Shown here: positions 10,210 to 55,380 of the stretch, piece by piece
How the letters are laid out: the number at the start of each line of letters is the position of its first letter
How positions within the stretch are numbered: the stretch's first letter is position 1
From: Eledone cirrhosa
Taxonomy: Eukaryota
Reading direction: 5' to 3'
NCBI GenBank assembly: GCA_964016885.1
Contig: OZ024744.1
Location: 86,676,001 to 86,740,000, forward strand
Length of the DNA: 64,000 bases
Notes under the pieces: model-generated
Databases searched by the model: none
The model's input: the letters and a program-made list of their open reading frames with translations, nothing else
What the model was told of the DNA's origin: nothing
Translations under genes and position numbers: made by a program

Positions 10210-10530
10210 CAGACCCATAAAATAGAATTCTAATTTTATTTATAGTTTTCGGCAAGGCCATCCGTAACTCACGCGGTATGCAAATGAGGCTACTCAGCCG
10301 ATGTGTACTTAAGAAAATGCTACATATTTTCAACAGTTCAACAGACTGGCAGAGGTATACAGTCCTGATGAAGGGTAATGACCCAGAAACATGTTGATTG
10401 TTCTTCGGTGTCAGTTTTGAACTAACAGATGACAATTTGTAATCGGCATGGCATAGTTTTGATCGGGTCGTTTGTTTACAAACGAATCGAACATTATTGT
10501 TGATGTTCGATACAACCCATTCGTACATAT
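10210..10530 (+). mobile_element. non-coding hammerhead-bearing element (family C), diverged relative of 54930-55380
   Basis: Colinear similarity: ATGCAAAT, ggct.ctcagccg, hammerhead, 'tgtcagt.ttgaac', 'ttacaaac.aa.cga.cattat', 'aacccat.cgtacatat'. Confidence 0.65.
10359..10401 (+). ncRNA. minimal type-I hammerhead ribozyme, complete
   Basis: ACAGTC-CTGATGA-a-GGGT-aatg-ACCC-a-GAAA-CATG-TT-GATTGT. Stem I is 6 bp with one G:U, stem II is 4 bp, stem III is palindromic, and the GUU cleavage site follows 10395. Confidence 0.85.
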
Positions 10531-11378
10531 GTATATGTATAAAGTCATGTGATAGCAGGGGAAAATTACTCCTGTGGTAGAACGCCTTGGATAATAGGGA
10601 ACAAGAATTGCCGACGAAGGGACCTCCAGATCCATCGGGAAAATGTACATATTACTTGCATATGCATTCTACAACTCGAGGAGTAGCTTCTCAGGGTCCC
10701 AGAAACTTCTCGAAGATTTTTATCGATTTCTATCGATTCTAATCGTCTCGAGATGTTCCACGCGTTTGTATTTATTGTTGTTGCGGTACAAACTATGGCT
10801 ACATGCATTTTGTTGCTTTATTGGCGTCACCCTTTCTTAACTTTGGGTTTACACTGGACTCTAACAACTATAAACTTCTCGCACCATTGAGGGCTGTGTC
10901 ACCACCTCAACCAAATCGATTAATATCTGATATATTGCGGCTATAACATCAATTCAAACCCAATATTTTATATCTATATATATAAAACTGATGTGTGTCC
11001 TCATTTTTGCAAAGTCTATACAAATCCACATTTCTACACCGATTGACTTCAAACTTGCATTTATATATTCCTTGCAGTCTAAAAATATTGACTGCAGCTT
11101 TTATTTTTCAATTTTCTGTTGTTAAAGTGGTGTTAGGCGCTGGTTATCCATCTCCGTCGCGCTCTTATAATATCTGCCTGTATGCCTGGCTGTCTGCATT
11201 ATGACGTGTTATGTTCGTTATTATCCGTTCATTGCCATCTTCACGAACCAAAGTATCGTCTTCCTGTTTTCCTTCGGTTGCAACGTTTTTCGAAATATTT
11301 ACTTCTGCGTTCACAGATTGATGCTTTTAGTTTCAGAAGATGCCGTTAGGGATGAAAGCAACGATTCTTTTATATTAA

Positions 11379-11880
11379 TCTATATATGTATATATATAAA
11401 ACTGAGGACGGATGTATGTATGTATGTGTGTATGTGTGAGTGTGTGTGTGTGAAACCCGAGAAGTACCCAACCGATCTTTTTCAAACTTTAAATGTGTAT
11501 CACTTATATTTCAGGAAGTGTTCTGGACATAGAAAATTCTACTTTTTGATCCCCTAGGGCCCGCATTAGGTGAAAAACTTCATTTTTTTCAGCTTTTTAG
11601 GGCTTTTTTGAGGCGTTACGTCTAGCCGATTTTCCCGAAATTTTAAAGCATATTATACATATGAAAAAATTCATTTTCTTGATCCCCTAGGGCCCGCATT
11701 TGGTGAAAACCTGCCTTTTTCCTGCTTAATCGAGGAAAATCTTAGATTATCCAGCCATCAAAGTATTCGGTTTATTTTCTTTACATATTGTCCAGGCATG
11801 CAGTTTTTCCACGATTAGGTCTGTTCGCGGCCCGCGTTCCAAAATACCTTATCCCGTGCAACGCCGGGTACCATTGCTAG
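11379..11880 (+). mobile_element. non-autonomous Helitron
   Basis: A|TC 5' end 'tctatatat...ataaaactgagg'; 3' hairpin 'cccgtgcaacgccggg' followed by CTAG|T. Confidence 0.75.
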
Positions 11881-13340
11881 TATATGTATATATACATATG
11901 TGTGTGTGTTTGTGTGTTTCGACGTGCGTATCTGTGTGTCTGTGTGTACGTTTAGGCGGGTCTGTACATGCATATATATATATATATATATATATATATA
12001 TATATATTTATAATTACATATATATATATGTTTGCTTGTGCATACATGTGTGTGTGGCAATGTAGGCGAGAGGCTGTGTATGTGCGGCAGAGTAAGTGTG
12101 TGTGTGTGAAGTAGTAGTAGTATATATGGGTGTGTAGTACTCAAAGCATGAAAGTGTACTCGTCTTATATTTTTATCACATTTTTTTATTCCTATTTTCG
12201 CATGAATTCCTTGCATTTTGTTTGGAAGAGCCGGCAAAAGATATTAAAGACTTATTCAAACAAACGTAGTATACAAACACACACGTACTCACACACATAC
12301 ATATACACAAACACACTCATACACTCATGTATATATATATATATATATATATATATATATATATATATATATATATATATATATATATATATATATATAC
12401 ATACATAATATATATATTTACATGCATACATATACATATATATATATATGCGTGTATATATATTTGTGTAAAAGCATATAAAAGCATAAAGATAAACACG
12501 CATGCATACATGCATACAAGCACACAGACATGCATGCATATATACATATATACATACATATATACGTACAGTCACACATATATATAAATACATGCATACA
12601 TATATACATATATGCATGCATGCACATATGTATACATATATACACACATGTACATATACACACATATATAAATGCATAGACTTACACATTCACTGTACAT
12701 TTCTTACCATTTTAATCTTCACCATAACACTTAAATGCCATTTGCCGGCCCTCACACGAAATGCTTACGTCTCAATATATCTGTCATTGCAAGTTGCTTA
12801 CCTACGATTACTAACAGAACAGTCGGCATTAACACCCTATGTCATGTCCGTTTGATCCCTAAGGATAAACAATAGTCTCGAATTGAGCCAGCCTGATTAA
12901 TATCTGAACAGGCAGATTCGTTCAGCCCAAACATTCACCAGAAAGGATTTTTATTTCCCCACATCTTGATCTAACAAAAATGACCAGTTAGAAGCTTTTA
13001 GTGGTGATAAAAGCTAGTGGAATGGTTCATAAAATCCTTAGGAATGTCAGCAACGCCTTTCTCTATAGTCTAGTTGTCTCTTCTCTTTCTTTTTATTTCA
13101 ATATGTAAATGGACATTATATATATATATATATATATATATATATATATATGCGCACACGCACACACACACTCACACACACATATATATATATACATATG
13201 TATATATATATATATATATATATATATATGCACACACACATATATATATATACATATGTATATATATATATATATATATATATATATATATATGTATATA
13301 TATATAAATATAAATATATATATATATATATATATATATA

Positions 13341-13500
13341 TATGAAAAAGTGAGTCCTTCATCAGTGACCCTCCAACTGTCCTCGGCATTTCATCGCTTT
13401 ATTAAAGCGATGAAATGCCGAGGACGGTTGGAGGGTCACTGATGAAGGACTCACTTTTTCATATGTATCCCATTTGCAACGCCGCAGCTCCATTATTATC
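13341..13500. mobile_element. ~120-bp palindrome plus tail in (TA)n, with CTGATGA on both arms
   Basis: Centre ~13402. The same peptide [16 protein letters not shown] reads on both strands; CTGATGA at 13439 has no downstream GAAA. Confidence 0.65.
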
Positions 13501-13544
13501 ATTATATATATATATATATATATATATATATATATATATATATA

Positions 13545-52800: not shown

Positions 52801-52990
52801 ATAGATGAGATTCTACAGGACTACAACTGTTTCATTCTTTAGAAATCATCAGGAATCCTGATGATTTCTAAAGAATGAAACAGTTCTTGTCCTGTAGAAT
52901 CTCATCTATATTAAAACTTTTATACTCTGCAATGTATTGAGTACCTTACTTACTGTGGTTACCTCCGATTCAACCCGGAATAACGTACCT
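52801..52990. mobile_element. family F palindrome with back-to-back hammerhead cores plus tail
   Basis: Centre 52855; CTGATGA-tTTC-taaa-GAAt-GAAAC at 52858-52881 (+) and 52829-52852 (-). Confidence 0.8.
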
Positions 52991-53809
52991 ATATATATAT
53001 TTATATATATATATATATATATATATATATATATACATATATATATATATATATATATATATATATATATATATATATATATATATATATATATATATAT
53101 AATAAATATATATATATATATATATATATATATATATATATATATATATATATATATATATATATATATATATATATATATATAGAATATGTAGTTGTTT
53201 AGAGTGGAACTACAGTTAGAAAAAGGTACTCAATCTATTGGTTTGGTATAGACATCTTTATATTATATAGAAATGACGCCTACGGGCCTAGAACTGTTTC
53301 TTTCGTATGAAACATTTCTAGGCATTGTCAATGTTATGGAGCGATGGAAAACCTTCTTTCGGAAAGAATGTAACGAAGAGCTTCATTCAAGAAATATTAG
53401 CATATGACGTTTACTTAGCATATGTCTATCTATCAGCAATGGGAGAATACCGAAATCCTTTCACAGTGGCTATTGTCAGAAGATGAACTTTTTTATCAAC
53501 AGCAACTGCCATTTCCACAACAGATAGGAAGTGAAAGCGTTCCATTTTAAAACAGAGTACGCTCGTAAGCTCAATGGTAAGGAGAAGAAAGTATGCATTG
53601 GTTAGATCCACGGCGGTACGTTTTTAAAACGAAAACAATAACAAAAACAACACCACTAACAACAACAACAACAAAAAAAACACACACATACACACCAAAA
53701 ACAAGCAATACAAACCCCTCGTGTGGGATGCTACTCGCAACGACACTTTCTGCAGCCGCAACCTGGTGTAGTCTGCGATTAACGCCGGTTCTGCTGCACA
53801 ACAGGTTGG

Positions 53810-54020
53810 CGGTTGTACCCCTGGCGACTCCTAGTGGAGACTCCTAGTGTCCTCGGAATTAGGGCTACCTCCATAGGCGCCTCGGCCCTAGAGCTACCAC
53901 CATAGGTACTGAGCTGGCCAGACGCAGGTCTGAGCCCCGCGAGTTGGAGTGGCTTTTCCAGCGCGTCTCCCTTGCCGATCCTCCGAGGAAACGCCTCCTT
54001 CATTCTGACTGCCGGGGTTG
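53810..54020 (+). mobile_element. CRE-like RLE LINE 3' fragment
   Basis: 'gagttggagtggcttttccagcgcgtctcccttgcc' (ELEWLFQRVSLA); paralog of 49150. Confidence 0.6.
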
Positions 54021-54929
54021 TGTATGTGTGTATGTGTGTGCGTGTGTGTGTGTGTGTGTGGGGGGGTCATCGAGTATCATTCCATATTTAATTATGGTAG
54101 GTATGTGTATCTTTATGTTTTGGATGTTGACGAAGACTAAGCTGTTATAAAGGGCGTAATACATAAAAAAAAAAAAAAAAATAGACAGTGTACAAAGCAG
54201 CGACAAAGATGACCAAGACTACAATAACAACAATAACGGCGTTTAATACACGTACTAGGTTATTAATTTAAATGGAGAATCTGATTAAATGTATATATAT
54301 ATATGTAAGTATGAATACGTACATACATATATGTAGACAGATGTACAGTAGTATGTATATATACATACATGCACACACATATATATATATGTACGTATAG
54401 GTTTACCGAATATTTATTATAATGTTCGGTTTGTTTGTAAAGAAACAGCCCGAATTACGCCGTACAGTGCTCGTTTCATTCTTTTCCATTTATCGTTTTA
54501 TATATATATATATACATATATATATACATATATATACATACATATGTATATATATATATATATATATATATATATATATATATATATATATATATATATA
54601 TATATATATATATATATATATATATATATATATATATATTTATATTTATATATATATACATATATACAGTATATTGTTATAGATTGGGAAATACAAAAAG
54701 GAACTATATATGTATATATGTTTGTGTATGTATATATATATATATATATATATATGTATACACACATATACATAGTTCGTTTTTGTATTTCCCAATCTGT
54801 CTGTAACAATATATATATATATATATATATTTCTATATATATATATAGAAATGGCGACCATCAACCACATAGTCATAACGGAGGAAGAAGTATGTATACG
54901 TACATACATATATGTATACAGACGTACAG

Positions 54930-55380
54930 ATAAATGGAAAAGAATGAAACGAAATTTCATTTCTCACTCTTAGTACGGCTGATACTTCATCGACTCACTC
55001 ACTCGATATGCAAATTAGGCTGCTCAGCCGTTAATATGCATAAGGAAAGTATATACTTTCAGACGTTCAATCATCTGACAGGAAGCTATACGATGCTGAC
55101 GATAGCTAATAAGCTTTAAACTAGTACATCGTTCCTGTGTCAGTGTTGAACAAAAAGGCGACGATGGTTGCCGAACACTGTACGGCGTAATTCAGGCTGT
55201 TTGCTTACAAACAAACCGAGCATTATAATAAATGTTCTGTAAACCCATACGTACATATATATATGTGTGCATATATGTATGTATATACATACTACTGTAC
55301 GTCTGTATACATACTTACATTTAAGTAAGTGCCGTACTAAGAGTGAGAAATGAAATACCGTTTCATTCTTTTCCATTTAT
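54930..55380 (+). mobile_element. family C hammerhead element with an inverted terminal arm (related inverted piece at 54300-54495)
   Basis: 'ataaatggaaaagaatgaaacg' at 54930 is mirrored at 55380; homologous to 10210-10530. Confidence 0.75.
55090..55132 (+). ncRNA. minimal hammerhead ribozyme with a G12->T substitution
   Basis: ACGATG-CTGACGA-t-AGCT-aata-AGCT-t-tAAA-CTAG-TA-CATCGT. Confidence 0.75.

Follow-up and report, generated by a model that had tools for sequence, protein, structure and literature searches.

Compensatory hammerhead changes between two subfamilies of a probable non-LTR retrozyme in Eledone cirrhosa

Introduction

Retrozymes that lack long terminal repeats (non-LTR retrozymes) are described, in the available text of PMC7229834 and 10.64898/2026.07.22.740005, as short, tandem, non-coding units with a type I hammerhead ribozyme and a guanine-cytosine (GC) content below 50%, which attain copy numbers in the tens of thousands, form several families per genome, fold into a highly paired predicted circle and, in some families, show an excess of monomers over arrays. 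These features are shared by the family reported here, which is represented by two loci, copy A and copy B, in a 64,000-nucleotide (nt) window of the 3.0-Gb genome of Eledone cirrhosa (GenBank assembly GCA_964016885.1, contig OZ024744.1, positions 86,676,001 to 86,740,000 of the forward strand). We consider it highly probable that each locus is a truncated copy from a different subfamily of a non-LTR retrozyme, which likely spread via RNA copied by a Penelope-like enzyme.

The retrozyme class is known and the present family is an additional member of it. According to the portions consulted of the two sources named above, the route by which animal retrozymes return to DNA is still hypothetical. 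In the accessible part of PMC11167929, a Penelope-like enzyme is reported to cleave AT-rich DNA and to initiate at two sites within the RNA, which define a genomic "tail"; that of PMC8557442 reports partial tandems, inverted copies and a (TA)n bias in Penelope-like elements. Covariation within hammerhead families is to be expected and is already in print, since PMC4209133, in the excerpt available, calls genomic hammerhead families "full of covariations" and describes dimer-type palindromes; the review PMC6765202, as far as its visible text goes, covers both likewise.

Results

A first-pass annotation of the window had proposed that the two loci are colinear homologs whose ribozyme stems differ in sequence and still pair. 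We confirmed the colinearity, with 73.5% identity over aligned columns (197/268), and found that the similarity extends outside the core: with the ribozyme and the distal stem removed, the flanks alone scored z of 14.6 upstream and 15.6 downstream, values that none of 200 dinucleotide shuffles reached. The motif search found a single hammerhead with CTGANGA...GAAA type I geometry in the copy A region (ACAGTC CTGATGA A GGGT AATG ACCC A GAAA CATG TT GATTGT), and its core is complete, comprising CUGANGA, GAAA, an NUH triplet and three stems that close at stem I. The corresponding letters of copy B are ACGATG CTGACGA T AGCT AATA AGCT T TAAA CTAG TA CATCGT. All letters proposed for stems I and II were present, and 9 of their 20 letters differ between the copies with 10/10 pairs kept, through four double changes and one one-sided change. 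The base of stem II (10.1–11.1) is mismatched in both copies, as A.A in copy A and U.U in copy B. A UAU/U internal loop in the folded stem I of copy A is the likely tertiary partner of loop 2. The bounds of the elements exceed the coordinates first assigned to them, and copy B spans approximately 54888–55380 (Table 1).

The letters proposed for stem III (ACATGT and ACTAGT) were likewise present, and both are palindromes. Folding gave no stem III structure in the monomer, whereas two ribozymes formed a 6-base-pair (bp) duplex of -6.8 to -7.0 kcal/mol. Because a monomer would require a 2-nt loop, the changed inner pair is meaningful only in a dimer; the change keeps the palindrome, and its covariation has to be read between two molecules.

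Taken alone, the two copies are suggestive of selection on RNA structure and not decisive: under a null of nine random substitutions, retention of every pair had P = 2e-4 to 3e-3, while a column-shuffle control equalled the result in 61/500 cases, which is not significant. Covariation within this one window is weaker evidence of such selection than first proposed; with additional lineages, the selection was supported. In a gap-free alignment of eight natural lineage representatives (family D, described below, included; a group of old "H" hammerheads excluded), 12 of 17 pairs had changed on both sides and 96.3% of cells paired, the non-pairs being confined to 10.1–11.1. None of 500 shuffles equalled this covariation, and slid partners gave 0–3. 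Family D, one of the eight rows, lacks demonstrable flank homology, and a flank-based tree was built from seven homologous lineages, without D and H and with weak resolution among the B types. On this tree, parsimony gave 11 double events, and 68/70 stem cells were paired, compared with a neutral mean of 50 and a maximum of 66 in 20,000 simulations; the two unpaired cells are due to a private deletion in the G row (L224). The representatives have in common loop 2 (AAYR) and, in stem I, a loop of UAU/U or UAA/U, and the two may form a tertiary contact. At 10.1–11.1 the lineages carry U.U, A.A, G-C or C-G, and the canonical G10.1–C11.1 pair was found in lineages E and F only. The element is thus a type I hammerhead with covariation-supported stems, and selection on RNA structure is supported in this family by the comparison of these lineages.

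The best relatives of copy A across the genome are 85–88% identical (among them L015, a natural copy at 86%), in contrast to 95–96% for copy B (L033 at 95.7%), as expected of an old and a young subfamily; these identities indicate that the copies are not sisters and derive from old subfamily A and young subfamily B. Exact upstream motifs occur 165 times genome-wide for copy A and 16,108 times for copy B. A genome search with CTGANGA-N14-GAAAC-NN-GTH returned 60,612 matches, as against 31 with the reversed pattern as control, and 59,616 of them (98%) fell into palindromic stem III classes (40,100 TA, 18,810 SS and 706 AT), the SS class being all GC among the matches listed. Unselected stretches contained eight hammerheads in 340 kb, in agreement with the genome-wide density. 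The family is thus dispersed at high copy number, and B-type and lineage F arrays are head-to-tail series of short non-coding units, every unit carrying one type I hammerhead, with unit lengths of 422–430 and 484–502 nt for B types and 466 nt for F. We found head-to-tail arrays of 31 + 1 units of 466 nt (the related F type), 7 + 2 units of about 424 nt and 8 + 3 units of 310 nt, each with a strand switch and with neighbouring units 98–100% alike. By contrast, copies A and B are both solo, neither having a neighbouring partner ribozyme, and no intact tandem array of subfamily A was seen among the stretches examined.

Two further groups of hammerheads were observed. Family D (L061–L080, L226; G000:C1) is very young, with 310-nt units, about 18,800 hammerheads, an ACGCGU palindrome and 100% identity between adjacent units; it shows no clear flank homology to A or B. 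The hammerheads of several loci in L101–L129 share the geometry of A and B and are old and heterogeneous; they have ACAUGU, often a GUC triplet, and unrelated flanks, and are probably from extinct families. The flank similarity of family D and of the old H hammerheads to A or B stayed within shuffles (z up to 3).

The insertion ends of the family do not follow its ribozyme. The 3' ends of B copies cluster approximately -154 and -210 nt from the next cleavage site, about 56 nt apart; these clusters hold 86/105 ends from all loci, and the cleavage site holds 2; among loci chosen independently of the family, the respective counts were 16/18 and 0. Starts at the cleavage site accounted for 3/122 of the B 5' starts, which include subfamily-divergence breaks. 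The majority of the listed B ends in both clusters enter (AT)n. Families D and F have two end clusters each, though the samples are small (11 and 12 ends), and subfamily A has one, at the homologous site. Apparent ends at -262 to -273 were generic microsatellite matches that masking eliminated. The family therefore combines the Penelope-type traits of two fixed internal 3' ends, an inverted 5' copy and an AT-repeat target. Since the B ends ignore the cleavage site and match the Penelope two-site pattern, the template was likely circular or, alternatively, an uncleaved multimer, both of which fit equally, rather than a cleaved linear monomer.

That insertions cross the cleavage site, with no starts there, would also be compatible with a ribozyme that is merely a passenger, uncleaved multimers serving as template and the fold being kept for, for example, ribonucleoprotein folding or reverse transcriptase (RT) recruitment. 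The very weak stem III and the mismatched base of stem II agree with this, and in the portion seen of PMC11167929 ribozyme mutants of the anole element still supported insertion in vitro. A circular template, however, accounts for the identical end pattern, every lineage retains the catalytic core letters and an H17 other than G although its stems turn over, and the palindrome persists through three different sequences, as dimer catalysis predicts. We regard a passenger ribozyme as very improbable, and favour a retrozyme whose sources depended on cleavage.

We then asked where selection had acted. Thirty subfamily A copies were selected by an upstream motif outside the ribozyme, which 28 of them span. 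The core departed from the column majority at 6.0% and the remainder of the unit at 7.0% (P = 0.56); rates were similar in stems I and II, and the core was intact in 13/28. This pattern indicates that inserted A copies decay about neutrally, which places the fixation of the compensatory changes in source lineages; the paired changes likely record selection on parent elements. The first-pass annotation was thus right about RNA structure as the target, although selection appears to have acted on the source elements of the two subfamilies and not on the loci in the window. Its further proposal that the GAAA-to-TAAA change in copy B arose by decay after insertion was borne out: among the 29 closest B siblings, 28 have GAAA, one AAAA and none TAAA at this site, G makes up 99.8% of the family depth at position 55117 in run X1, and in run X4, which comes from a second organism, all five covering contigs read G. 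T55117 is, on this comparison, private decay of copy B, and the ribozyme of copy B is predicted to be inactive because G12 was lost (G12U). B-family rate contrasts were set aside in testing for selection on copies, because they mix subfamily differences and tandem copies.

We give hardly any credence to the notion that the host recruited the two window loci and keeps them under selection as ribozymes, or that DNA-level amplification of ordinary satellites produced the repeats. Copy A retains an intact core despite approximately 14% divergence from its relatives, which is unremarkable given that 13/28 A copies are intact at unit-wide mutation rates, and copy B has lost G12. The homogeneity of the arrays would suit satellites, but dispersed copies, fixed (AT)n ends and inversions point to retro-insertion.

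The window also contains a decayed element with a frame at 22542–23723, which we take to be Penelope-like by its motifs. Its young relatives (L271–L276) include many equal-scoring intact copies of 1,217 codons, in a tandem (period approximately 4.1 kb) and inverted layout. A minimal hammerhead core lies between the frames, a CX4CxxC linker precedes a GIY-YIG-like motif, and the ends are fixed, 19/28 of them in (AT)n. A Pfam search with the 1,217-amino-acid frame gave no match; by its linker the family is probably Neptune-like. The pseudo-long terminal repeat (pLTR) of this element shows no detectable homology to the retrozyme units, and we accordingly treat it as a candidate helper only.

The units share with Penelope-like elements an inverted and tandem arrangement, ends at fixed sites and (AT)n as target. 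This raises the alternative that each unit is a solo or truncated pLTR belonging to an autonomous Penelope-like element and not an independent non-coding element, and frog retrozymes are related to pLTRs in the available text of 10.64898/2026.07.22.740005. Such an element would have an RT and GIY-YIG open reading frame (ORF) between its pLTRs, but the units repeat every 310–500 nt without one, in arrays of up to 31 units that offer no ORF space. Nor did we detect pLTR homology to one intact family or to 30 GIY-YIG loci, of 10,595 candidates, although an extinct or unsampled pLTR may be the origin. We judge this alternative improbable and retain the independent retrozyme as the preferred reading.

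Additional features of the window are included in Table 1. The hammerheads with a 9-bp stem II at 42980–43036, 44374–44430 and 46324–46380 belong to a separate Penelope-type family, and the two tRNA-like matches are possibly heads of short interspersed nuclear elements. The repeat at 57–64 kb dominated an ungapped repeat search of the window.

Table 1. Features of the 64,000-nt window (positions count from its first letter).
Feature	Position	Strand	Remarks
Copy A, truncated solo monomer, old subfamily A	10220..10536	+	one hammerhead, without tandem partner
Copy A type I hammerhead	10359..10401	+	read from sequence letters and fold
Copy A stem I	10359-10364/10396-10401	+	
Copy A core CUGAUGA	10365-10371	+	
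Copy A core GAAA	10386-10389	+	
Copy A stem II	10373-10376/10381-10384	+	A.A at base; loop 2 AAUG
Copy A palindrome ACAUGU	10389-10394	+	
Copy A predicted cleavage after U17	10395	+	GUU triplet; placed by hammerhead numbering
Copy A extended stem I with UAU/U internal loop	10343..10419	+	fold
Copy B, one young-subfamily B1 unit and start of next unit	54991..55380	+	ends in (AT)n, at the major 3' fixed site (-154)
Copy B type I hammerhead	55090..55132	+	CUGACGA core; UAAA replacing GAAA at 55117
Copy B stem I	55090-55095/55127-55132	+	
Copy B stem II	55104-55107/55112-55115	+	U.U at base
Copy B palindrome ACUAGU	55120-55125	+	
Copy B cleavage position after A17	55126	+	
Inverted B-unit pieces, 5' side of copy B	54888..54987	-	Penelope-type inverted arrangement; outer end near second fixed site
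Separate B fragment without ribozyme	54300..54499	-	inverted piece ending at -210 site, plus short forward piece
Hairpin-like group of end fragments of the B family, no ribozyme	37751..38044	.	
Decayed, presumably Penelope-like element	21288-23723	-	frame at 22542-23723
Three identical hammerheads	42980-43036; 44374-44430; 46324-46380	-; +; -	9-bp stem II, TATATA palindromic loop 3, inverted, beside (AT)n
Fourth long-stem-II hammerhead	37376-37432	+	TATATA loop; within inverted repeat ~37160-37480
Helitron Rep/helicase fragments	16250-18185	+	Pfam Helitron_like_N, E 1e-35
Broken reverse transcriptase frames, long interspersed nuclear element type	5758-8465; 26833-29103; 30416-34506		RVT_1 at 27427-28272
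tRNA-like Rfam match	39362-39433	+	39 bits, above gathering score
tRNA-like Rfam match	45065-45136	-	31.4 bits, above gathering score
C/A-rich long tandem repeat	56900-64000		60-nt and 12-nt periodicity, extreme strand skew

Discussion

Our comparison of copies A and B with further lineages suggests a model in which a tandem array would be transcribed by read-through, the palindromes of adjacent hammerheads would form a 6-bp stem III, with cleavage after H17, and the resulting 310–500 nt monomer would likely be circularised. A Penelope-type RT/GIY-YIG protein may then nick (AT)n DNA and start reverse transcription from one of two internal sites, crossing the cleavage junction and producing more-than-unit, tandem and inverted insertions. 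Under this model, only source lineages with a working ribozyme would propagate, so that compensatory changes would become fixed between subfamilies while solo insertions decay.

Several observations weigh against this reading. Cleavage, transcripts and circles are predictions from sequence, and in the part seen of 10.64898/2026.07.22.740005 one of nine frog retrozyme dimers tested cleaved. The circular folds of natural monomers, strongly paired in 5/5 cases (z -5.2 to -12.9, 40 shuffles each) and with stems I and II both formed in 4/5, have z-scores boosted by AT/GT microsatellite hairpins within the units. On the seven-lineage tree, the finding of 0 changes at 11 core sites vs 0.97 per flank site is partly built in by the choice of representatives with intact cores, which makes the stem result the stronger one. 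Loop 2 of the A copies was less mutated (1/112, P = 0.007 uncorrected), which is unexpected under neutral decay. The pLTR of the 1,217-codon element scored within the shuffle maximum against the retrozyme units, and 30 GIY-YIG loci (150 scored, 10,595 candidates) showed no downstream hammerhead under the filter used. Rfam placed no hammerhead model among the best 150 of 196 matches to the window, nor among 81 matches to an intact array stretch (L223). Separately, the microRNA matches from Rfam were rejected as AT-repeat hairpins scoring below gathering thresholds.

The useful part of these results is mechanistic: with Penelope two-site insertion ends, a candidate helper that is intact and young, and arrays of near-identical units at hand, the hypothesis of how retrozymes are copied becomes directly testable. 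It is conceivable, if somewhat doubtful, that the 1,217-codon enzyme moves active retrozymes, recognising unrelated ribozyme circles by structure, starting at two internal sites and rolling into (AT)n. If so, the two would form the first reconstitutable retrozyme–helper pair, with a natural covarying hammerhead series that swaps dimer palindromes (AUG, UAG and GCG cores) and whose members may cleave with their own kind only.

Our search of the literature on cephalopod, octopus, squid and mollusc hammerheads and retrozymes found no such family; Lunse et al., on variant dimeric hammerheads, and the supplement of PMC7229834 lay outside it, and either may cover the A.A variant or the insertion ends. 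Titles and opening lines of abstracts on retrozymes, Penelope tails and target-primed insertion mentioned no end-mapping of retrozymes.

Comparison with known systems

The hammerhead families in Rfam resemble the present units in the CUGANGA and GAAA core and three stems, read from the sequence directly, although the units were unmatched by any hammerhead model in the matches listed. Penelope-like elements share the partial tandems, inverted 5' copy and two-site "tail" ends, the AT-rich or (TA)n targets and a palindromic stem III that works as a dimer, as described in the available portions of PMC4209133, PMC8557442 and PMC11167929. They differ in that the units here lack an ORF and have a hammerhead of canonical size, with a 6-bp stem I and a 4-bp stem II, unlike the minimal pLTR form with its long stem II in those portions, and in that the B end sites lie about 56 nt apart, as against 30–40 bp for the Penelope tail in the published text seen. 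The units also show no detectable sequence homology to the one intact Penelope-like element compared.

Among retrozymes, the axolotl HHR_Amex1 has a palindromic loop 3, as here, and Amex2 has a stem II whose base is a U.U mismatch, as in copy B, with the U.U variant cleaving as a dimer, both according to the accessible text of PMC7229834. Circles and cleavage were demonstrated for published retrozymes, as far as the consulted text goes, whereas the present family is known from sequence alone. In the available parts of PMC7229834 and 10.64898/2026.07.22.740005, the class has a stated length of 150–450 bp, which the units here, of up to 460–500 nt, match or exceed, and two fixed internal 3' ends with head-to-head inversions, as found here, are not described. 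Judged by its sequence features, the family nevertheless has every testable character of a non-LTR retrozyme but the canonical G10.1–C11.1 pair, the loss of which has precedent.

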